Below, piece by piece: positions 7,822 through 31,925 of a DNA stretch of 64,000 bases. Origin of the DNA: a virus (lineage: Duplodnaviria > Caudoviricetes); the IMG/VR virus record IMGVR_UViG_2974679032_000001, positions 8,218 through 72,217 of that record. One strand, 5' to 3'. The notes beneath the pieces were generated by a model that was not told the DNA's origin, ran no database searches, and saw nothing but the letters and a program-made list of their open reading frames with translations. Position 1 is the first letter of the stretch. The number at the start of each line of letters is the position of its first letter. The position numbers and the translations under genes were made by a program.

Positions 7822-8330
7822 TGACCAGTCATCAGAGTGCTCGGGCCTGGCTCCAGGCCCACATCCCACCGGCCGACCGCGAGATTCTCTACCGCGTGGT
7901 CGCGGGCGCGCTGACGTTCCTGAGCGGCTGGGGCATCCTCGACAACGAGCGCGCCGTGCTCTGGAGCCAGCTGGGCATCGGCACGGTCACCGCGCTGTTC
8001 GCCCTGCTCTACGCGACCAGCTCGGTGCGCGTGGTGCTCTACACGCTGGTCGGCCCGCTGGGCGCGGTGCTGCTGGCCTACGGGATCATCCAGGACGAGA
8101 AGTGGGCGGTCATCACCGCCAGCCTTGCTCAGGTGTTCGGCATCGCCACCGCCGCCGCCAAGACCGTCGAGATGCTCCCGCCTGAGCGCCTGTCCGGCGT
8201 GGTAGTCGCGCCAGCTGCAACCAAGGTCAAGACGGCGGTCGCGGTTCGGACTCCCAAGGAGGCTCGCGCCGTGCGGCGTGCCCGGCCCAAGGCCAGGAGC
8301 ACGCGGCGGTCTCGAACCCCAACCGGCTGA
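7821..8330 (+). CDS. holin-like membrane protein
   Basis: About 4 hydrophobic segments with two similar halves (GILDNE..W / GIIQDEKW) and a very basic C-terminal tail. Confidence 0.6.
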   Translation: MTSHQSARAWLQAHIPPADREILYRVVAGALTFLSGWGILDNERAVLWSQLGIGTVTALFALLYATSSVRVVLYTLVGPLGAVLLAYGIIQDEKWAVITASLAQVFGIATAAAKTVEMLPPERLSGVVVAPAATKVKTAVAVRTPKEARAVRRARPKARSTRRSRTPTG

Positions 8331-9710: not shown

Positions 9711-10511
9711 ATGGGTGCCACCTTCCCCCTCGTCAAGGGCAAGACGCTGCGCCTGACCAAGATCAACGGCTGCGGGATGCCCATCGCGGGCGCTCGCAAT
9801 CGCCTGGTGACCAACGGCTACGTCAGCCTTGGCCTCACCGCGGTCATGCGCGATGCCGACGACCTGACCCAGACCAACGCCGAGGGCAAGGAGTGCGTGG
9901 CTGATCGCACCGAGCCGGAGCGCCGCTGGTACACCCCGGCCCTGGAGCTGTGCAACGTGGACCCCGATGTGGTCACGATGCTCACCGGCTGGGAGACCGT
10001 GCTCGACGCGGCTGGCGAGGTGGTCGGGTTCCGCGACGACAAGAAGATCGAGAGCGACTACGGCGTGGCGTTCGAGCTGTGGACCTCGGGCAAGTCCGAG
10101 GACGACTGCCCCGACATCCCGACCTCGGACGCGATCCTGACCGACCTCTCGGCGGGCCGCAAGTACGGCTACTTCCTGTTCGGCGGGACCGAGTGGGTGC
10201 CGGGTGACATCACCATCGGCAGCTCCATCGCCACGCTCACGCTGACCGGCCGGACCATCGCGCTGCCGCACTGGGGCCGGGGTCCGTACAACGTCACCGT
10301 GGACGACGAGGGCAACCCGGTTCGCCTCCTGGAGCCGACCAGCAAGAAGGAGCACCTGACCGTGTTCCGCACGCCGCTGGCTCCGCCGGACGCGACCGAC
10401 GGCGCGGTGGCCCTGGCCACCAGCACGATCTTCACCGGCACGAACTACTACTACGGCGGTCCGGCCTCCGAGCCTGCGATTGACGAGGCTCCGGCTCAGG
10501 TGGCTGCCTAA
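9711..10511 (+). CDS. major tail protein
   Basis: AGGAGG RBS. 'VKGKTLRLTKINGCG' and 'LELCNVDP' resemble cluster-B-like tail tube proteins. Followed by a terminator. Confidence 0.8.
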   Translation: MGATFPLVKGKTLRLTKINGCGMPIAGARNRLVTNGYVSLGLTAVMRDADDLTQTNAEGKECVADRTEPERRWYTPALELCNVDPDVVTMLTGWETVLDAAGEVVGFRDDKKIESDYGVAFELWTSGKSEDDCPDIPTSDAILTDLSAGRKYGYFLFGGTEWVPGDITIGSSIATLTLTGRTIALPHWGRGPYNVTVDDEGNPVRLLEPTSKKEHLTVFRTPLAPPDATDGAVALATSTIFTGTNYYYGGPASEPAIDEAPAQVAA

Positions 10512-10572: not shown

Positions 10573-11076
10573 TCAGCTGGCCAGCGGGGCGATCTTCCCG
10601 GCTGTGCGAACCAGCGAGGAGGCGGTGCCGCGCTGGTAGCCGATGCCCGGCGATGCCTCGAACACGTCCATCAGCTCGATCCAAGGGTCGCAATCGTCGC
10701 CCTCCTCGTTGATGAAGGTGACGGCCTCCCAGAGCGGGCGGAAGTACGCGCCGGGGAGCATGGCCTCGATGGAGCGCGGGGCCAGGGCCACCAGCTGATC
10801 CACCAGCTCGTCGCGGCCGACGCAACCGGCCTGGCCCATCTTGGTGTCATACGGCGAGAGCACCGCGTCCAGCTCGACCAGGCCGTGCTCGGCCGAGAGG
10901 ATCATCACCTTGGTGGACTGACTCATCACGCGCTCGTTGTCGATGGCCTCGGTCTGAGCGGCGGCGAGCATGTGGCGGAAGTTCGCGCTGTCGTAGAGCT
11001 TGGCGGCGGGAGCCGGGCGGTCCAGCTTGGCGGCGGCGCAAGGGATGATGACCAGCGTCTCGGCGTAGGTGCTCAT
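10573..11076 (-). CDS. DUF6884/YaaA-like domain protein
   Basis: Motifs 'IIPCAAAK', 'AAKLYDS..F' and 'ILSAEHGLV....LSPYD'. Has its own promoter and leader. Confidence 0.7.
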   Translation of the reverse strand: MSTYAETLVIIPCAAAKLDRPAPAAKLYDSANFRHMLAAAQTEAIDNERVMSQSTKVMILSAEHGLVELDAVLSPYDTKMGQAGCVGRDELVDQLVALAPRSIEAMLPGAYFRPLWEAVTFINEEGDDCDPWIELMDVFEASPGIGYQRGTASSLVRTAGKIAPLAS

Positions 11077-12501: not shown

Positions 12502-12831
12502 ATGGCCAAGATCGTCATCGAGGGATCAATCACCCCGGCTGCTGGCCTGGCGCGCGGCGAGCGCCGCGAGGTCCAGGACTCCAAGGAGGTGCGGGCCTAC
12601 GTCGCCAAGGGGTTCGCCAACGTGGTGGACGAGGAGAGCGGCGAGGTCGAGGCGGCTCCGCTGCCCGACCCGATCAAGCCTCCGGCCAAGAACGCCAGCA
12701 CCGAGAAGTGGGCCGAGTTCGTCGGCGAGCATACCGACATCGAGGTGGCGGGCAAGGACCGCGAGGAGCTGCAAGCCGCCTACGACGACTTCGTGGCCCG
12801 CTCCGGCGCTCCCGCCGCTGACGAGTCCTGA
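12502..12831 (+). CDS. hypothetical structural-region protein
   Basis: GAGGGA RBS; strong codon bias. Confidence 0.75.
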   Translation: MAKIVIEGSITPAAGLARGERREVQDSKEVRAYVAKGFANVVDEESGEVEAAPLPDPIKPPAKNASTEKWAEFVGEHTDIEVAGKDREELQAAYDDFVARSGAPAADES

Positions 12832-13265
12832 TGGCGGCGCGGGCCACCGCGCGCATCCACATTGACGAGGCGCGCCTGGAGCGCCAGACCGGCGTGATGC
12901 TCCGGCGCAAGCACCGGAGCCTGACCCGGCGCATCGCCAACCAGGCGCGAGCGGCGGTGCCAGTGCGCACCGGGAACCTCGGCCGGACCATCGGCGAGAT
13001 GCCCCAGCACTACACCCCGTTCCATGTGAGCGGCGGCGTGGAGGCCACGGCCAACTACGCCGCGCCTGTCCATGAGGGCAGCCGCCCGCATCTCATCCGC
13101 GCCCGCCATGCTCAGTACCTCCACTTCTTCTGGCACGGCCGGGAGGTGTTCCGCAAGAGCGTCTGGCATCCCGGCACGCGCGCCCGGCCGTTCCTGCGCA
13201 CCTCGGCGACTAGGGTGGCGGCTCAAGACCCCGACATCCGCCTTGAGTACGTCGAGCTGGATTGA
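12831..13265 (+). CDS. HK97 gp10-like head-tail/tail completion protein
   Basis: 'PVRTGNLGRTI', 'YAAPVHEG' and 'HPGTRARPFL' motifs. Confidence 0.75.
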   Translation: MAARATARIHIDEARLERQTGVMLRRKHRSLTRRIANQARAAVPVRTGNLGRTIGEMPQHYTPFHVSGGVEATANYAAPVHEGSRPHLIRARHAQYLHFFWHGREVFRKSVWHPGTRARPFLRTSATRVAAQDPDIRLEYVELD

Positions 13266-13272
13266 GAACCTG

Positions 13273-13713
13273 ATGCGCCTCGGATTGATCGCTGCGATGC
13301 TCGCCGCACTGGTGAGCTTCGCCGCCCCGGCCCACGCCGACAGCCCGTTCCATTGCCCTTACCCGGCGGTCTCGATGGGCGCTGATGTGCTCGGCGGCGA
13401 GGGCGAGTTCTGCGACTACCCGACCGAGGCCAACGGCGCGCACATGCACTGTGAGGCGGGCGGGTTCCACGCGGGCGGCATCGGCCTGGCGGGCGGCGAC
13501 ATCTTCAACTTCGGCCTGCTCTCCAACGCTGGCGCGGGCGGCTACAGCTGCACCTGGCGCTGCCCCGACAACTCGCTGGCGCTCGCGCCCAACCCGCCTG
13601 GCCAGTGGCGCGAGAAGATCGTGCTCACCGCCGAGACCAACGACTGCCGCGATCACATGGCCCCGGCCGGGAGCTGGAGCGCGCCGCCGCCGGGCGCGGT
13701 GCCGAACGACTGA
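13273..13713 (+). CDS. secreted cysteine-rich protein
   Basis: Signal peptide MRLGLIAAMLAALVSFAAPAHA|D; 6 Cys. Confidence 0.7.
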   Translation: MRLGLIAAMLAALVSFAAPAHADSPFHCPYPAVSMGADVLGGEGEFCDYPTEANGAHMHCEAGGFHAGGIGLAGGDIFNFGLLSNAGAGGYSCTWRCPDNSLALAPNPPGQWREKIVLTAETNDCRDHMAPAGSWSAPPPGAVPND

Positions 13714-13779: not shown

Positions 13780-14460
13780 ATGACCACGTTCAACGCTGAC
13801 GGCTCCACCGGCCCCGCCGACGCCCAGCTGGCTCCGCCGCCCGATCTCACCGACCACGCCCAGGAGGATCGCCCGGCCATGACCGACGCCGAGCGCGCCG
13901 AGCTGGCCGCGAGGGTGAAGGGCACCGCGACCCCGCGCACTCCCGAGGAGCGCGCCGCGCTGCTCACCGAGGACGAGCGCCGGGCCGACTACGCCGCCGC
14001 CAAGAGCCGCCAGCTGGCGGGCCTCGATCCCCAGCCCGGCGATGACGAGAAGCTCGCCGACGATCCCGACGCCGACCCCACCGTGGTCGAGGCCGAGGGG
14101 CCGGGCACCACCATCGCCCTCGCGCCGACCGTCGATGTCTCCAAGCTCGGCGAGGACTGGCCCTACGACTGGCTGGAGTTCAAGGGCGACAAGCTGGGCA
14201 TCCGGCTGCCGACCCGCCAGGCGCTCGCCGCCTTCTCGCTGGCCAGCTCCAAGTACGTCAGCCTGGGCGTCAAGAACGACCTCACCGGCCTGTTCATCGC
14301 CCGCCACCTCTCGCCGGAGAGCTACGGCCGGGTGTTCTCCCGGCTGATGGACCCCGACGAGAACGACTACGACGTGGACACGGTGGGCGAGCTGTTCAAC
14401 GCCATCGTGATGGCTGCCGTCAACGCTGATAAGCCAGCGACCCCCGACGCTGCCAAGTAA
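13780..14460 (+). CDS. tail assembly chaperone (G-type)
   Basis: Immediately upstream of the tape measure; acidic and helical; GAAGGA RBS. Confidence 0.7.
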   Translation: MTTFNADGSTGPADAQLAPPPDLTDHAQEDRPAMTDAERAELAARVKGTATPRTPEERAALLTEDERRADYAAAKSRQLAGLDPQPGDDEKLADDPDADPTVVEAEGPGTTIALAPTVDVSKLGEDWPYDWLEFKGDKLGIRLPTRQALAAFSLASSKYVSLGVKNDLTGLFIARHLSPESYGRVFSRLMDPDENDYDVDTVGELFNAIVMAAVNADKPATPDAAK

Positions 14461-14488
14461 TCCCACGTCACTGCGATAGCCTGACCGG

Positions 14489-17400
14489 GTGACCGATGTC
14501 GGCAAGATCAGCCTGGGCGTTGAGCTTGACGCCAGCGATCTGTCGGCGAAGCTGGGCGAGGCGGTGCGCCGGGCCATCGCCCCGGCCCTGGCGGAGATTC
14601 AGCGCGAGCTAAACGCCGTCCAGCGCGAGTACGAGCAGACCAGCCGCTCGGCGGAGAAGTCCGGCTCGGCTCAGGCAGCTGCGGCCAAGATCGCCGCCGA
14701 TGCCGTCCACAACGTGGGCGAGGAGACCGACAAGGTAGCCGCCAAGACGCGGGTGGCCTCGGGCGTGAGCGCCCGCTCGATCAACGCCGTTACGCGGGCC
14801 TGGGAGAAGCAGACAGCCGCCATCGCGGCCAACACTGCCGCCAGGGCGGCAAACGCCGCTACGCCCACAGGAGGCGGTCCTGGGGGCGGTTCTGGTGGCG
14901 GCTCGGGAGGCGGCGGGCCTCCACGGCGCGGCGGTCCCGGTGACATCCACCGGGGCGGGTTCCTCCAGGGCGGGCGTGGCCGGTTCGGGTTCCTGACCTC
15001 CGGCCCCGGCCTCAACCTGATGGCGCTGGGCATCGGCTCGTTCCCAGCTGCGGCCACCGCCGTCACCAACCTCACCGCGTCCATCGAGCAGCTGGCGGGC
15101 GCGGGCCTCGCGCTGCCCGGCATCTATGGCGCGGCGGCGGCGTCGATTGGCACCGCGGTGCTCGGGTTCCACGGCATGGGCGATGCCGTCAAGGCGCTCA
15201 CCGAGGCGATGAAGTCCGGCGATCCCAAGGACTTCGAGAAGGCCACCGAGGCGATGAAGGACATGGACCCAGCCGCTCAGGCTGTGGCCAAGACCGTCGC
15301 CGGGCTGGTGCGTGGCCCGCTCCTCGATCTCCAGAAGATGGTGGCCGGGCGGATGTTCGCCGGGTTCGACACCGATCTCCAGCAGACCGCCGACAAGGTG
15401 ATCCCCCGGCTCTCGGGGCGGCTCGGCGAGCTGGGCACCGCCTGGAACGGCACGCTCAAGGCGATCACCAGCTCGATGCGGGACAACCGCAACCTCAACC
15501 TGCTCGACGGCATCCTCGGCGATACCGCCACGGCTCAGACCAAGATCAACCAGAAGGTCATCGCGCCGCTCACCCACGCGCTGCTCGTCCTGACCAAGGG
15601 CGGGACCGGCGTGCTGCCGCGCCTGGCCGACGGCCTCGCGGCCGGGGCCGAGCGGTTCGACCGCTTCATCACCCACGCCGCCGAGACCGGCCAGCTGGCC
15701 AAGTGGATCAACGACGGCGTGACCGGGATGCACCAGCTCGCCGAGAGCGCGCTCAACATCCTCAAGGTCATCCACAACCTCGACCAGGCCGCGACCGGCG
15801 GTGGGTTCCTGCCCTGGCTCCAGAAGGCCACCGGCCAGCTGGCCGCGCTCACCGGCTCGGCCTCTGGCCAGTCGGCGCTCACGCAGTTCTTCAAGGACGG
15901 CCGCGAGCAGATGGAGCAGTGGGGTCCGATCTTGCTCGACCTGGGCAAGGTGCTGCTGGACATCTATAAGGCCAGCCACATGTGGGCGGAGATTCTCCTC
16001 CCGTTCCTACACACCGCGCTCGATCTACTGACCAAGTTCCCCGGCCTGATCACCGCCGCCGGGGTGGCGCTGCTGGCCTGGAAAACCTCCACGATCTTCA
16101 AGCCGCTCATCGCGGGCCTGGACTCGGCTATCGGCAGGTTCGGCCAGCTGGAGGCGGCGGCGGTCAACGCGGGCACCGCCGTGGCTGGCGGGGCCGGTGG
16201 GTCACGACGCCAGCGGATCGCAGGCGGTGCCCGCGCCGGGCTGGGCGCGCTCGGCTCGACCAAGGGCCTCCTCGGGCTGGGGTTCATGGCGGGCGGCACG
16301 ATGGAGCAGCTCAACGCCGACTCGACCGGCGACAAGGTGATCGGCGCGCTCTCCACGGTGGGCGGCTCGGCGCTGACCGGCGCGGCCATCGGCTCGGTGA
16401 TCCCCGGCGTCGGCACCGCCATCGGTGCGGCCGGTGGCGCGGCGGTGGGCGCGGCGCTGGCGGGCGTCAACTTCTTGCTGGGCGAGAACGCCCAGAAGTC
16501 GCGCGAGGCCGCAGCTGCCCAGGCGGAGTACCAGGCCAGCCTCCAGCAGAGCGCGGCGGCGCTCGCGGGCCTCCAGCAAGCCCAGAAGGACGTGAACGAC
16601 TCGCTCCTGACCTCCAAGGGCGATCTCACCGACGCGGGCGTCCAGGGCGCAATCGCCCAGAACCTCGGCGCGCTGCCGGACTCGATCAAGAGCCACTACG
16701 GCGAGCAGACGGCGAAGGGGTTCTCGGAGTCCCTCGGGCGGCTCGGGCTGTCCAACGCCGAGCTGGCCCAGCAGATCACCGGGGCGCAGCCACAGTTCGA
16801 CGCCCTGGAGACCAACCTGCGGATGATGGGGCCGGACGGCGCGTTCGCCGCCCAGCAGCTCCAGCAGATGCGCGACCAGATTCTCGGGATGCAGGGCGCG
16901 GCTCAGACCGCCGCTCCGGCGATGGATCAGCTCGCCCAGGCCCTCCACCTCCCCGGCGCGGCCGACGCGGTGGCGGCGGTCAAGACCGCGGTGGAGTCGA
17001 TCCCCAAGGATGTCCCGATCACGATGGACATGCCCAACGCTCCGGCGGTGGTGGACATCCTGCGCGGGATGGGCGAGCAGATCGACATCGTGGATGGCAA
17101 GCCCATCGTGCTCAACCCCGACGACGCCAAGGTGAAGGAGGCCGACGCCGCCCTGGAGGCGCTCGGCGTCAAGATCACCCACCTCCCCGACGGCTCGATC
17201 AAGGTGAGCATCGACCCGCTGGCGCTCCAGCGCGCTCAGATGGACATGAACTCCTTCTTTGCGCAGTACACGAACATGATTCTCCACCCCGAGATTCAGC
17301 CGCACATGGACACCAGCCAGCCGCCGCCGGGGCCGATTCCCGGCGGGCCTCCGCTGCCTCCGGCGCTGGGCGGCTGGGATACCGGCGGGCACGCCAGCGG

Positions 17401-20400
17401 TGGCGTGTTCCCCGGCTACGCGCCTGGCCGGGACTCGCTGTGGGCGCGCGTCTCGCCGGGCGAGGGCGTGCTGATCCCCGAGGCCGTGCGCGGTCTGGGC
17501 GGCTCGGCGGGCGTCTACGCGATCAACTCGATGTTCCGCTCGAACCTGAGCCGCCGGGGATACGCCAACGGCGGCATCGTCGGGTTCGATGACGGCGGCG
17601 TCCAGACCCACCTCGACCCCAACTTCTTGGGGCCGGGGCCGGGCAATGCCTCGGAGCCGAACTACGCCAAGGGCATTTACGACATCCTCTCCGGCCGTGA
17701 GCTGGCCCCGATGGGTCCGCTGACCAAGCTCACCAGCGACCAGATGAAGTACATGGCCGATCAGCGCGTGGCCAAGCTGCCCGGCATGAGCGGCGGCGGC
17801 ATCGGCCCGTTCGGCACTCCGATCAAGCCCAAGAACCGGGCCTACGACGCGATGGCCGGGGCGCTCCAGGCCCTCGGGTTCAAGCCGGAGGAGATCATCG
17901 GGGAGAACCCGGTGGACTACTTCGAGAAGGCGTTCACCGACCAGATGCAGGCCCAGCAGCAGGCGATGACCAGCGCGGGCCAGGGCGGCGCGCTGGGCGC
18001 TGGCGGGATGAGTCCGGCCAACGCGGGCCAGATCGCCGCCGCGCTGGTGGCCTTCTCGCACTCGGGCAATCTGGCCGACGTATCGAGCATCGGCCTTAAC
18101 GCCAACTCGCCGGTCATCACCGCGATCACGTCGGCTCGGAACAAGAAGGGCGGGCTGGCCGACGACCAGATCGCCGAGCTTATCCAGCAGATCATCGGCG
18201 GGCCGGGCTACCAGGGCGTGCTCGACACCCAGAACTCCTCCATCGTCAAGAGCCTCCAGAGCTTCCACGACCAGATGGTCAAGAAGGGCGGGGTGCCCGG
18301 CGCGGCTCCCGGCATGGGCGGGCTGCCCGGCGCGGCTGGCGCGGGCGGGCTGAACTTCGACGCGCTGATGAAGCTGGAGGCGGGCAGCAGCGGCGGCTGG
18401 CAGGCCAACACCGGCAATGGGTACTTCGGCGGTCTCCAGTTCGATCAGGGCACCTGGGACCAGTACAAGCTCCCAGGGTTCCCGGCGCGCGCCGACCAGG
18501 CCACCCGCGAGCAGCAGATTCAGGCGGCGATGAACGCGCTGGGCCAGGGCCGCACGCCGCAGAGCCTCTGGCCCGCCAACTACTCCGCGCTCCAGCAGCC
18601 CGGCGCGACCAACGTGACCGGCGGGCTGCCCGGCGCTGGCCAGACCCCGTTCCCGGCGGTGGCCGGTGGCGTGCCCAGCGGGATGACCGCCGACGCGATG
18701 GGCCTGATTACCTTCGCCCAGCGCGCCAGCGGCGGGGCCTACAAGTGGGGCGCGAGCGACCTGGCGGCTGGCCTGAGCGACTGCTCGGGCGCGGTCTCCG
18801 ATCTGGTCGAGCTGATCACCAAGGGCCAGGCCACCCCCGAGCGGCTGTTCGACACCCACTCCGCTGGCGGCGTGCTCGCCGGGCTGGGCGCGGTCCAGGG
18901 CGCGGTGCCCGGCATGTTGCAGATCGGCTGGTCCGACGAGCACATGCGCGCCACGCTGCCCAACGGCGTCAACTTCGAGAGCGGCGGCGCGACTGGCCAG
19001 GGCGCGACCTACGGCGGCAATGCCAAGGGCGCGGCCGGTATGCCCAACATCATGTCGCTGCCGGTGACCGGCGGCGCGGCCGGGATGTACGGCGCTGGCG
19101 GGATGGGTGGCCTCGGCGGCGCTGGCGGCGTCGTGCCGGTCTACGTCACCAACTTCGGCCAGGGCGCGAACATGGCCCCGCTGTTCAAGCCGCTCGCCGA
19201 CGGCCTCGCGGCCGGTGGCCAGGAGGCGGCGGGCAATGTCATCGGCGACCTCGGCGCGGGCATCAGCTCGGCGATCCAGACCCCGGCCGACCAGCGCAAG
19301 CCCAACGCGCAGCTGGCCGACCTGGTGGCCGAGCACAACCCGATGGCGCTGGCGGCGGCGCTCGGGATCAACGTCCAAGACTTCACCCGCCAGGGCGGGG
19401 CCGGGCCGGACGCGGTGACCCAGGCGGGCGGCTACGACGCCAGCGGGCGGCTGTTCTCCGACACCGCCGGGCTGATCGACCGCACGTTCACCTCGCTCAA
19501 CGCCCAGCTCGACGCGATGAAGCAGCAGCTCACCGACGCCGTGCAACAGGTCGCGGCCAAGCTCAACGACGAGGCCGTCACCCCGATCATCAAGGCGGGC
19601 GTCCAGGAGGCCCTCGGCGATCTCAAGGACTCGGTGCTCAACGGCCTGGGCACCTCCATCGGCCAGGCCGCAGCTCCGCCGATTGCCGATGCCGTCAAGA
19701 GCGCGGTGGCCAGCCTGCCGGTCAACTCCTCGGGCGCGGCCAGCACTGGCGGCACCATCGGCTCCCAGGCGGCGGCTCCGTTCAACACCGCCCTGGGCGG
19801 GCTGTTCGCAGGCGGCGGCGCGGTCTGGGGCGGCATCCCCGGCAAGGACTCGGTGCCCATCCTGGCCCAGCAAGGCGAGTTCGTCCTGGATCGCGGCGAT
19901 GTCGCGCGGATGGGCGGGGTCCACGGCGTCGAGGCGTTCCGCCGGGCGATGGAGAAGCGCGGCGGCATCCGGCACTTCGCCACTGGTGGCGGGGTCAACG
20001 TCAACGATGTGGTCGGCGCGGAGTTCTTCGGGGTCTCCGAGGTGCCCATCATCGGCACCATCGTCAACCTCCTGGTCCGCGTGCTGCTCAAGATGATCGG
20101 CGTGGACATCGAGGCCCGCGACACGATGATGGAGATGAGCGACGACTTCCGCACATTCCGCGGTGATGCGTTCAAGGCGTTCGACGCCCAGGGCCGTCTG
20201 CTCAACGACACCTCGGGCCTGATCGAGCGGTCGAGCACCAGCACCGAGACGGCGGCGGCTGAGCGCATCCGCATCCTCAAGATCGTCATCCAGGCGATCA
20301 TCAAGTACCTCATCGAGAAGGTCATCGTGCCCATCGCCAAGGCGGTGGCCAACTCGGTCATTCAGGCGGGCGCGAGCGCGGCCGGGGCGGCGGTCTCCGG

Positions 20401-20971
20401 CGCGGGCGGCGGGCCAGCTGGCGGCATCGTGTCCTCGGTGATCTCCTCGGCTGGCCAGGCTGGCGTGGACATCGCCGCCGAGGTGGGCACCGACTTCGCC
20501 CTGGCCATGAGCCAGACGATCATCGACATGGTGGCCGAGGGCCTGATGTCACAGTTCGGCGACCAGATGACCGGCCTGTTCGGCGGCGCTGGCCTGGCCG
20601 CGCTGTTCGATCCGGCGGGCGGGCTGCTGGCCACGCTCCTGGGCGGCGTGCTCGGTATCTTCTCCGGCCTGCTCGGCGGCACCCTGGGCGGCGCGAGCAC
20701 CATGATCCCCGGCGACACGCTGTTCGGCGCGCTCCCGTTCGACAACGGCGGCATGGCCGAGGGCATCGGCTATCTGCCCAAGGCGACCAACGAGCCGGAG
20801 CTGGTGCTCTCACCCGTCGAGACCAACCTGTTCTCGCGGTTCGTCTCGGCGCTGGAGCGCGGTGGGTTCGGGAGCGGCGGCAACCGGACGGTCAACGCGC
20901 CCATTACAGTGATCGGCGGGAGGGAAACTCCCGAGAAGGTCCAGAACCGGCTGCTCAGCTTGATGCCGTAG
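14489..20971 (+). CDS. tape measure protein with Rpf-like transglycosylase and NlpC/P60-like domains
   Basis: Longest ORF (2160 aa), Ala/Gly-rich and helical. Contains 'ANTGNGYFGGLQFDQGTW...ADQATREQQI' and 'YKWG...DCSG...H'. Confidence 0.93.
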   Translation: MTDVGKISLGVELDASDLSAKLGEAVRRAIAPALAEIQRELNAVQREYEQTSRSAEKSGSAQAAAAKIAADAVHNVGEETDKVAAKTRVASGVSARSINAVTRAWEKQTAAIAANTAARAANAATPTGGGPGGGSGGGSGGGGPPRRGGPGDIHRGGFLQGGRGRFGFLTSGPGLNLMALGIGSFPAAATAVTNLTASIEQLAGAGLALPGIYGAAAASIGTAVLGFHGMGDAVKALTEAMKSGDPKDFEKATEAMKDMDPAAQAVAKTVAGLVRGPLLDLQKMVAGRMFAGFDTDLQQTADKVIPRLSGRLGELGTAWNGTLKAITSSMRDNRNLNLLDGILGDTATAQTKINQKVIAPLTHALLVLTKGGTGVLPRLADGLAAGAERFDRFITHAAETGQLAKWINDGVTGMHQLAESALNILKVIHNLDQAATGGGFLPWLQKATGQLAALTGSASGQSALTQFFKDGREQMEQWGPILLDLGKVLLDIYKASHMWAEILLPFLHTALDLLTKFPGLITAAGVALLAWKTSTIFKPLIAGLDSAIGRFGQLEAAAVNAGTAVAGGAGGSRRQRIAGGARAGLGALGSTKGLLGLGFMAGGTMEQLNADSTGDKVIGALSTVGGSALTGAAIGSVIPGVGTAIGAAGGAAVGAALAGVNFLLGENAQKSREAAAAQAEYQASLQQSAAALAGLQQAQKDVNDSLLTSKGDLTDAGVQGAIAQNLGALPDSIKSHYGEQTAKGFSESLGRLGLSNAELAQQITGAQPQFDALETNLRMMGPDGAFAAQQLQQMRDQILGMQGAAQTAAPAMDQLAQALHLPGAADAVAAVKTAVESIPKDVPITMDMPNAPAVVDILRGMGEQIDIVDGKPIVLNPDDAKVKEADAALEALGVKITHLPDGSIKVSIDPLALQRAQMDMNSFFAQYTNMILHPEIQPHMDTSQPPPGPIPGGPPLPPALGGWDTGGHASGGVFPGYAPGRDSLWARVSPGEGVLIPEAVRGLGGSAGVYAINSMFRSNLSRRGYANGGIVGFDDGGVQTHLDPNFLGPGPGNASEPNYAKGIYDILSGRELAPMGPLTKLTSDQMKYMADQRVAKLPGMSGGGIGPFGTPIKPKNRAYDAMAGALQALGFKPEEIIGENPVDYFEKAFTDQMQAQQQAMTSAGQGGALGAGGMSPANAGQIAAALVAFSHSGNLADVSSIGLNANSPVITAITSARNKKGGLADDQIAELIQQIIGGPGYQGVLDTQNSSIVKSLQSFHDQMVKKGGVPGAAPGMGGLPGAAGAGGLNFDALMKLEAGSSGGWQANTGNGYFGGLQFDQGTWDQYKLPGFPARADQATREQQIQAAMNALGQGRTPQSLWPANYSALQQPGATNVTGGLPGAGQTPFPAVAGGVPSGMTADAMGLITFAQRASGGAYKWGASDLAAGLSDCSGAVSDLVELITKGQATPERLFDTHSAGGVLAGLGAVQGAVPGMLQIGWSDEHMRATLPNGVNFESGGATGQGATYGGNAKGAAGMPNIMSLPVTGGAAGMYGAGGMGGLGGAGGVVPVYVTNFGQGANMAPLFKPLADGLAAGGQEAAGNVIGDLGAGISSAIQTPADQRKPNAQLADLVAEHNPMALAAALGINVQDFTRQGGAGPDAVTQAGGYDASGRLFSDTAGLIDRTFTSLNAQLDAMKQQLTDAVQQVAAKLNDEAVTPIIKAGVQEALGDLKDSVLNGLGTSIGQAAAPPIADAVKSAVASLPVNSSGAASTGGTIGSQAAAPFNTALGGLFAGGGAVWGGIPGKDSVPILAQQGEFVLDRGDVARMGGVHGVEAFRRAMEKRGGIRHFATGGGVNVNDVVGAEFFGVSEVPIIGTIVNLLVRVLLKMIGVDIEARDTMMEMSDDFRTFRGDAFKAFDAQGRLLNDTSGLIERSSTSTETAAAERIRILKIVIQAIIKYLIEKVIVPIAKAVANSVIQAGASAAGAAVSGAGGGPAGGIVSSVISSAGQAGVDIAAEVGTDFALAMSQTIIDMVAEGLMSQFGDQMTGLFGGAGLAALFDPAGGLLATLLGGVLGIFSGLLGGTLGGASTMIPGDTLFGALPFDNGGMAEGIGYLPKATNEPELVLSPVETNLFSRFVSALERGGFGSGGNRTVNAPITVIGGRETPEKVQNRLLSLMP

Positions 20972-30780: not shown

Positions 30781-30806
30781 GGTCATTCCCGACCTCGGAG
30801 GGCAAC

Positions 30807-31175
30807 TTGTACGATCCGCCAGCTGGGTATGTCGATTGCGAGTCCGACGCCCAAGATGCGCCAACCCCGCCCGGCGCGCCGTTCCATGAGATCGAGGTGG
30901 ATGGCGTAGGCATCATCCACGCCCGCAAGCCTCTGCCCAACGCGATCCCGGCCCTGGCTGGCGCGGCCAACTCCAAGGTGAGCGGCCAGAGCCGGATCGA
31001 CTACCTCGACATCTTCGTCCAGAACCACCTCGCCGAGGGCGAGTTCGAGAACCTGCTCAGCCGGATGATGGACCCCGACCACGATATGCCGCCCGACGCC
31101 ATGCTGCGCGTCTCGCGGGCAATCGCGACGGCGGGCAGTGCCCGCCCTACTCGGCGGTCATCAACCTCGCGTTGA
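30807..31175 (+). CDS. tail assembly chaperone paralogue (frameshift donor ORF)
   Basis: GGAGGG RBS then TTG at 30807. Aligns by eye with 13780-14460 (HL......SR.MDPD). Ends ...ARPT. Confidence 0.65.
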   Translation: MYDPPAGYVDCESDAQDAPTPPGAPFHEIEVDGVGIIHARKPLPNAIPALAGAANSKVSGQSRIDYLDIFVQNHLAEGEFENLLSRMMDPDHDMPPDAMLRVSRAIATAGSARPTRRSSTSR

Positions 31176-31489
31176 TGGCCGCGCACAACTGGAGGGCCAT
31201 CCGGCTGCGGTTCGCTGATCGCGGCGTGGCCAGCGTCATGCGCGAGGTGCCGACTATGCACATCGTCTTGGACGCCATCGAGCAGCTCGGGGCGGAGAGC
31301 GCGACCCACGGTGCCAAGACCGAGACCGAGGCCCGCGCGAAGCTGAGCAGCTATTACGACAAGCTCTACAAGCCGGACGCCACCACCATCGCCATCGACG
31401 GCGAGGGCTATATGCCGCCTCCGCCGGGGTTCTCCGACGAGGAGGTCGAGGCCAGCTTCGACGCCTTCTTGAACGCGGCTGGCCGGTAG
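31145..31489 (+). CDS. GT-like extension reached by a putative -1 frameshift (alternative start ATG 31175)
   Basis: The -1 frame is open with GC3-rich codons from CCC at 31145. Confidence 0.6.
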   Translation, partial: PYSAVINLALMAAHNWRAIRLRFADRGVASVMREVPTMHIVLDAIEQLGAESATHGAKTETEARAKLSSYYDKLYKPDATTIAIDGEGYMPPPPGFSDEEVEASFDAFLNAAGR

Positions 31490-31517: not shown

Positions 31518-31925
31518 ATGGCCACGACCACCGTATTCTTCGACACCGCCGCTCCGGCCGGTGAGAAGTTCGATCCCGAGGTCGCCGCCGAGATCGAGGA
31601 GCTGGCTCCTGGCCTGGCACCTGGCGAGGTTGGCGAGGCCGAGCTGGCGGATCACGCCGTCAGCAAGGACAAGATCAAGGCCGGGGCGGTCGGCTCGACC
31701 GAGCTGGCCGAGGGCGGCGTAGAGGCCGTCAATATGGCCGCTGACAGCGTTCCCACCGCCGCGCTCCAGGATGACTCGGTGACCGCCGAGAAGGCGGGCC
31801 TGGGCGTCTCAACGGCCTATGACGCGGCGGGCAATCCCATCGAGGACAAGCGGGTCTACCTGACCGCCGCCGCCTACAACCTCATCACGGCAAAAGACCC
31901 CAACACGACCTACTACATCAGCTGA
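31518..31925 (+). CDS. minor tail/fibre-associated protein with short repeats
   Basis: About 10-aa repeats (AVSKDKI / AVGSTEL / SVPTAAL / SVTAEKA); ends 'KDPNTTYYI'. Confidence 0.65.
   Translation: MATTTVFFDTAAPAGEKFDPEVAAEIEELAPGLAPGEVGEAELADHAVSKDKIKAGAVGSTELAEGGVEAVNMAADSVPTAALQDDSVTAEKAGLGVSTAYDAAGNPIEDKRVYLTAAAYNLITAKDPNTTYYIS

Follow-up and report, generated by a model that had tools for sequence, protein, structure and literature searches.

How would a mycobacteriophage of cluster B make the long form of its tail assembly chaperone when the chaperone gene beside its tape measure gene carries no extension? The production of gpG/gpGT-type chaperones, as in lambda, by a programmed -1 frameshift is a conserved arrangement of long-tailed phages. 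This arrangement is summarised in the accessible part of PMC10885494, and the accessible text of cluster B1 genome announcements reports no frameshift of the tail assembly chaperone (PMC12352053, PMC10793310). Here we analysed a stretch of 64,000 nucleotides (nt) from a cluster B (Bclasvirinae) mycobacteriophage (IMG/VR record IMGVR_UViG_2974679032_000001, positions 8,218 to 72,217; hereafter the window) and, within it, a pair of overlapping open reading frames (ORFs) at 30807-31489, which we call G' and T'. Our results suggest that the pair is one recoded gene in which a -1 frameshift would give a long, GT-like tail chaperone; this explanation as a whole is likely to be right, and its first part, recoding at G'/T', is on comparative grounds very likely.

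In the proposed mechanism, most ribosomes would read G' to its TGA at 31173-31175 and release a product of 122 amino acids (aa), and a fraction would slip back one base at the tetramer C_CCT (31145-31148), where tRNA-Pro would re-pair from CCU to CCC. The slipped ribosomes would re-read the T as the first base of a TAC codon and go on to 31489, with a hairpin 5 nt downstream (31154-31182) acting as the putative stimulator. The predicted G'T' protein has 227 aa, made up of G' residues 1-114 and the 113-aa T', with the junction ..S-A-R-P-Y-S-A-V-I.., and would be a long GT-like chaperone whose N-terminal half is paralogous to the chaperone beside the tape measure gene. The phage would have two sources of chaperone, the usual locus for the short form and a second one, distal in the tail module, for the long form. 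That the shift occurs, how often it does so, and what part its product plays in tail assembly we infer from comparison of relatives. The elements of the pair are as follows.

30797-30802, plus strand: Shine-Dalgarno-like GGAGGG, 4 nt 5' of the TTG start of G', read from the sequence
30807-31175, plus strand: G' ORF, frame 0, 122 aa (PF23781, E 1.5e-43; phrog_915, E 1.6e-56)
31145-31148, plus strand: proposed -1 slip site, tetramer C_CCT (CGC CCT conserved; tRNA-Pro CCU to CCC)
31148-31489, plus strand: T' in the -1 frame, from Tyr codon to stop, 113 aa (PF23888, DUF7240, E 4.5e-45; homology starts at 31148)
31149-31153, plus strand: spacer of 5 nt between slip site and hairpin
31154-31182, plus strand: putative stimulatory hairpin, 12-bp stem (31154-31165 with 31171-31182) and 5-nt loop (folding and covariation)
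31175-31489, plus strand: T' as an independent ORF of 104 aa from its ATG, in the annotation style of relatives

A chaperone paralogue distal in the tail module

A 1.3-kb query around the pair matches 343 mycobacteriophage records, B1 phages such as PDRPv included, the best match being PenguinLover67 (Bclasvirinae, Quesadillavirus; 90% identity), in whose homologue the TTG start of G' is also annotated. G' scores 147.7 bits against PF23781 (Phage_TAC_16; cut-off 27 bits). Its residues 1-114 are conserved and are followed by an unconserved tail of 8 residues, homology stopping at residue 114 in all 94 loci compared below. The genes of the usual chaperone locus are listed here.

13780-14460, plus strand: canonical tail assembly chaperone (PF23781, E 1e-40; phrog_1118 'tail assembly chaperone', E 8.6e-69)
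14489-20971, plus strand: tape measure protein gene, 2160 aa (ORF; homologue annotated as tape measure protein in PenguinLover67)

G' is a paralogue of this canonical chaperone, as the preliminary description, made from the sequence alone, had proposed on an alignment by eye: BLASTP of G' (30807-31172) against the canonical chaperone (13780-14457) gives 31% identity over 68 residues of the same stretch (E 9e-09), and both proteins belong to PF23781, the TAC_16 domain of the canonical one being residues 103-216. The same description had stated that no T ORF follows the chaperone beside the tape measure gene, and this proved correct, as the gap from the canonical chaperone stop to the tape measure start at 14489 is 28 nt and the ORF list of the window holds no -1 ORF of at least 50 aa across that stop. 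The extension-less layout is the same in PenguinLover67 and in Mycobacterium phage Mask, in which a single extension-less chaperone adjoins the tape measure gene. The tail module in the window runs rightward, with minor tail genes occupying the region up to about 30780, and the G'/T' pair lies at its far end, 9.8 kb beyond the tape measure stop (20971). The usual chaperone place, between the major tail gene and the tape measure gene, is taken by the gene at 13780-14460 and not by G'/T'.

The junction of the two frames and the slip site

The comparison comprised the window and 93 further loci (L001-L094 without L051) from GenBank phages, IMG/VR contigs, bacterial genomes and metagenome contigs, gathered with T' motifs, with motifs ending before the junction, and with one junction-spanning motif. 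Two references from the window served for aligning each locus, G' up to ..ARP and the -1 frame starting with the Tyr codon. Split forms account for 65 of the 94 loci and in-frame forms, that of Mask among them, for 29. The change of frame falls at one and the same place in every split locus, all 65 of them: G' aligns as far as CCT, and T' aligns from the T of CCT onward, in the -1 frame. Such agreement is more than chance. The hosts of the split loci are Mycobacterium (several cluster B genera, Jeon and prophiT46-2), Gordonia (Sourvirus and Evaa), Rhodococcus (ReqiPine5), Tsukamurella (TPA2) and Skermania (SPI1). T' itself covers profile positions 1-103 of the 104 of PF23888 (152.7 bits; threshold 27), has homologues in 520 phage records, and shows homology from nine codons before the ATG of the window. 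By this homology, T' would depend on G' for its N-terminal part in 65 of 65 split loci, though not absolutely in the window, which has an ATG of its own.

Codon usage, counted in nine window genes (5157 codons), also tells the two frames apart. The frame-0 tail after GCC CGC CCT (31140-31148), already described from the sequence as atypical, is indeed rich in rare codons (ACT, 3.2% of Thr; TCA, used twice, 1.3% of Ser; CGT, 2.9% of Arg), and the -1 frame after CCT uses common ones. The -1 frame is open back to 30890, and in the relatives, where it had been expected to stay open upstream of the ATG, it is the conserved frame: from the slip site to the G' stop the -1 peptide Y.AVI.LA is conserved, and the frame-0 tail varies, in length from 1 to 23 codons.

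The slip site is invariant, in agreement with the conservation of CGCCCT that had been predicted. Arg CGC followed by Pro CCT is the reading of every distinct split junction (41 of 41), and the entropy of columns 4-9 in the junction alignment is zero. CCT makes up only 3.5% of Pro codons in the window genes. The 21 distinct fused junctions, on the other hand, have any of four Arg codons (CGC, AGG, CGG, CGA), and their Pro codon is CCC, CCG or CCA in all but one, which has CCT. The invariance falls at positions that are synonymous in frame 0, and slippage at C_CCT would account for it, because the tetramer needs an Arg codon ending in C, which only CGC does, and because the conserved Tyr or Phe codon of the -1 frame has to take its first base, T, from the last position of the Pro codon. 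Two other candidate elements were rejected by eye: no canonical X_XXY_YYZ heptamer was seen in the overlap in the aligned junction sequences, and an inverted repeat that lies upstream in the window, with its end in the slip site, is not kept in Rosebush and others.

Sharma et al. (2014) tested all 16 Z_ZZN tetramers in Escherichia coli and, according to the accessible part of that paper (PMC4066793), C_CC.U was one of six that reached at least four times background with a downstream pseudoknot and a 5-nt spacer, the six ranging from 0.26 to 5.6%. Both features of such a signal are found here, namely the possibility of re-pairing from CCU to CCC and a downstream structure (12-bp hairpin, 5-nt spacer). 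The preliminary description had derived G' and G'T' from the distal paralogue by a non-canonical Pro-tRNA slip from CCT to CCC; the comparisons support such a slip, but the word non-canonical has to be given up, as C_CCU is a known Z_ZZN tetramer with measured activity in E. coli and hence no oddity.

A covarying hairpin downstream of the slip site

A candidate stimulator downstream of the slip site had been overlooked in the preliminary description. This is a hairpin that starts 5 nt 3' of the tetramer and contains both the G' stop and the T' ATG. The 61 nt from 31140 to 31200 fold to -31 kcal/mol (z -3.9 versus shuffles), and the hairpin stretch by itself to -20.9 kcal/mol. The stem covaries: across 36 distinct, gap-free aligned sequences the share of paired cells is 92.8%, versus 79.5 +/- 1.2% in shuffles. 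None of 500 shuffles comes up to the observed share, and shifting the partners by 1-3 columns leaves 23-59% paired. Changes on both sides are found in 8 of the 12 stem pairs. Pair 17-41, for example, joins the wobble positions of two Ala codons and is C-G in 18 of the sequences, against 17 with G-C, a synonymous swap not explicable by the peptide. The outer pairs of the minimum free energy (MFE) fold of the window, and pairs 6-53 and 7-52 of the consensus fold, never vary and were discarded as uninformative. A search of 31050-31300 against Rfam gave no match at E <= 1. The hairpin is stronger in split than in fused forms, with a mean MFE of -20.8 versus -13.3 kcal/mol and 11.2 versus 8.6 in-register pairs of 12 (Mann-Whitney p ~1e-8, uncorrected for relatedness).

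Naturally fused homologues and their predicted fold

Three proteins of 222-226 aa (P0001-P0003), recovered when longer relatives of T' were sought, carry both Pfam domains and the junction ..GTARP-Y.AVI.., and gene 34 of Mask (232 aa) is the same fusion at the same position in the tail module. Single-ORF PF23781+PF23888 genes are also present in prophages of Mycobacterium aquaticum, M. yunnanensis and Mycolicibacterium litorale. The junction peptide foreseen in the preliminary description (..ARP-Y-S-A-V-I..) is thus encoded in frame by homologues, P0001-P0003 and Mask; the long form is no peculiarity of this phage and belongs to a widespread single-ORF family. Among the best 150 cluster representatives in an exhaustive, profile-free search with P0001, 64 span the junction in one ORF (42 of them nearly full length), 47 cover the G part only, with 45 of these 47 ending at query residues 114-117, and 39 cover the T part only. 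In an alignment of 45 fused proteins, the region around the junction is the best conserved of the whole protein. AlphaFold2 predicts fused P0001 as one compact unit (predicted local distance difference test, pLDDT, 91.7; predicted template modelling score, pTM, 0.83), in which the junction is a loop preceding helix 115-127. On these comparisons, the long form appears to be the ancestral or an interchangeable state of the widespread single-ORF family.

A 3.6-kb ENA contig encodes one further protein, P0004 (187 aa), which matches the C-terminal end of T' (P0001 residues 167-220) over its last ~56 residues and is unrelated in its N-terminal 125; it is perhaps an assembly chimera, perhaps a genuine swap of domains.

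Switching between split and fused forms

A T' tree was built from 71 distinct rows and 103 columns, omitting the hairpin codons and excluding identical T' sequences and three partial loci (L067, L078 and L093). Split and fused forms are intermingled on this tree. For example, the fused metagenomic locus L007 sits among the close relatives of the window, and Mask-like fused forms share a starred clade with prophiT46-2-like split forms. The starred branches force at least three changes of state, and the approximately unbiased (AU) test rejects a tree that separates split from fused forms (p 2.2e-5); the number of switches is uncertain because there are only 103 columns and many open forks. The two forms appear from the tree to have interconverted several times.

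Taken further, cluster B phages and their Gordonia, Rhodococcus, Tsukamurella and Skermania relatives may share a two-locus system, with a plain G adjoining the tape measure gene and a GT paralogue at the distal locus, the latter having been toggled at least three times between a plain ORF and C_CCU plus hairpin by gain or loss of a single base. The frameshift would then be an adjustable valve for the dosage of the long form and not a means of making two products from one locus; we hold the chances of this broader model to be about even.

Is the long form a tail chaperone?

The assignment of G'T' as a tail chaperone is based on the Pfam and PHROG families, the lack of a T extension at the tape measure locus, matches in BFVD and weak matches in the PDB. 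Searched whole against BFVD, the fused model matches proteins of SilentRX and Lilbeanie that are annotated as tail assembly chaperones (E 1e-4 to 2e-4, TM 0.54-0.61, over 207-209 columns). The top four rows of a wide PDB search include 3klu and 2ob9, the HK97 tail assembly chaperone, at a weak Z of 3.3-3.6, under the safe level of the tool. A profile search (alignment A3) gave no match among PDB sequences at E <= 10, and in NCBIfam none of G', T', the canonical chaperone and P0001 has a family. Taking these sequence and structure comparisons together, a tail-chaperone role for G'T' is reasonably likely, and having G at the tape measure locus and G'T' at the distal locus would amount to a division of labour. 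The client of the T' part is presumed to be the major tail protein.

9711-10511, plus strand: major tail protein gene (phrog_792, E 2e-122)
31518-31925, directly after the G'/T' pair: gene with a Phage_tail_C tip domain

The alternative that survives best accepts the frameshift and assigns the protein to another step, such as the folding or attachment of neighbouring tail tip or fibre proteins. It would fit the location of the gene, immediately ahead of the Phage_tail_C gene and 9.8 kb beyond where the tape measure gene ends, with a DUF7257 gene also downstream. The T' part is a DUF without tested function, and in the protein atlas its best named matches (Phage_Gp15 and DUF5361, 0.83-0.89) fall below the 0.9 line of the tool and are leads only. 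Against such a role stand the membership of the N-terminal half in the same Pfam family as the positional chaperone, the whole-length BFVD matches to annotated tail assembly chaperones, and the lack of any other T-like ORF at the tape measure locus, so that we consider it rather unlikely.

Frameshifting, re-initiation or slippage at the C run

Alternatively, there may be no recoding at all, G' and T' being separate proteins and T' arising from the ATG at 31175 by termination-reinitiation at TGATG. The G' stop (TGA, 31173-31175) overlaps that ATG (31175-31177), which lies in the -1 frame; the same overlap of ATG and stop is found in most cluster B relatives, and ATGA/TGATG overlaps put the downstream gene in the -1 frame automatically. 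Moreover, two ORFs are annotated in every GenBank record among those listed, in all of which both are called hypothetical proteins. This account is nevertheless difficult to reconcile with five lineages (ReqiPine5, Evaa, TPA2, Jeon and SPI1) in which the conserved T' region has no ATG, GTG or TTG at its Tyr codon or in the 16 codons after it. The T' ORFs given for these five in GenBank start far within the conserved region and are thereby shortened; TPA2 has one GTG, 6 codons 5' of the Tyr codon. Separate translation would also leave unexplained why the -1 peptide, and not the frame-0 tail, is conserved nine codons upstream of the ATG, why CGC CCT is invariant at positions synonymous in frame 0, and why the fused family has its most conserved motif across the junction. 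As had been remarked before, the independent ORF at 31175-31489 has no evident Shine-Dalgarno sequence; none that is purine-rich was seen by eye before the ATG, which is buried in the 3' arm of the hairpin. Together, these observations make separate translation of G' and T' improbable.

A third possibility, that the long form comes from transcriptional slippage or DNA length variation at the C run, would suit the single extra base at or next to the run in fused relatives and the at least three changes of state, but it is highly improbable, as the run has only 3 C, far fewer than known transcriptional slippage tracts, the conserved covarying hairpin 5 nt downstream suits ribosomal frameshifting, and some fused forms carry a non-C insertion (CCG TAC, AGG CCC).

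Several points weigh against a frameshift product with a chaperone role, even so. The locus sets are partly redundant, and the scan with the junction-spanning motif can return fused forms only, its 14 loci being all fused. Because fused forms retain 8.6 of 12 in-register pairs, the complementarity of the hairpin comes in part from the conserved peptide. An ATG is present at the TGATG overlap in the window and in the majority of cluster B phages, where coupled re-initiation could be a further, or even the only, source of T'. The pair is away from the place, in front of the tape measure gene, that defines such chaperones; the resemblance to chaperones of solved structure is weak (Z 3.3-5.0, below the caution line of the tool), and Foldseek of the fused model against the PDB gave no match at E <= 0.001. 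Finally, C_CC.U is among the weaker of the six active tetramers in the accessible part of PMC4066793, the data of which are from E. coli and not from mycobacteria. Among the matching sequencing runs listed there is no RNA run, and soil metagenomes show small shares only (<=0.14).

Comparison with known systems

In its outline, the proposed frameshift gene resembles lambda G/GT, with overlapping ORFs for a short and a long product, a -1 extension, a conserved slip site near the end of G, a G part in a tail-assembly-chaperone family and a place in the tail module. It differs in that the recoded gene is distal and an extension-less paralogue sits in the usual place, in that the signal is a tetramer with a hairpin and not an X_XXY_YYZ heptamer, and in that close relatives carry the long form as a plain ORF. 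The signal itself resembles those of the IS3/IS1 type, which also have the Z_ZZN form; C_CCU with re-pairing of its cognate tRNA-Pro, a 5-nt spacer and a stable downstream structure are common to both, as far as the accessible part of PMC4066793 describes them. On the other hand, the gene here belongs to a phage structural module and does not encode a transposase, a simple 12-bp hairpin takes the place of the IS3 pseudoknot, and no Shine-Dalgarno-like stimulator was seen upstream. The single-ORF PF23781+PF23888 proteins (Mask gene 34 and the prophage genes) share the domain order and the ARP-Y junction and, in the case of Mask, the genomic position, but they are in frame and need no recoding, their junction codons vary freely and their hairpin is weaker.

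A literature search, the scope of which excludes many subscription journals and supplements, found no description of the G'/T' pair as a frameshift; the PRFect supplements (PMC10885494) might list such a prediction. Should the frameshift reading hold, one supposed exception to what is nearly a universal rule among long-tailed phages would vanish, hundreds of annotations could be corrected, and DUF7240 would gain a function. The natural series of split and fused forms of one gene would then offer a test of why phages keep the G:GT frameshift, and of how a tetramer-plus-hairpin signal works in mycobacteria.

Other features of the tail module

Upstream of the canonical chaperone lies a gene that might be mistaken for a chaperone.

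12831-13265, plus strand: tail completion/Neck1 gene (phrog_5, E 1.1e-15)

Its homologue in PenguinLover67, gene 27, is labelled 'tail assembly chaperone', but we rejected this identity, as the gene matches phrog_5 and no chaperone family; the label was probably assigned by position. Between this gene and the canonical chaperone is an ORF of ~144 aa (13279-13713), where PenguinLover67 has only a 52-nt gap. Its product is Cys-rich and has a hydrophobic, signal-like N-terminus, with no Pfam match and a sole, weak PHROG match (phrog_17375, E 7.5e-05). The tape measure frame is open for 141 nt 5' of its GTG (14348-14488), in a +1 overlap with the 3' end of the canonical chaperone, which may be a mere GC-rich open frame. 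Within the rightward tail operon there is also a minus-strand ORF (10573-11076, 167 aa), which matches gene 23 of PenguinLover67, annotated as hypothetical.
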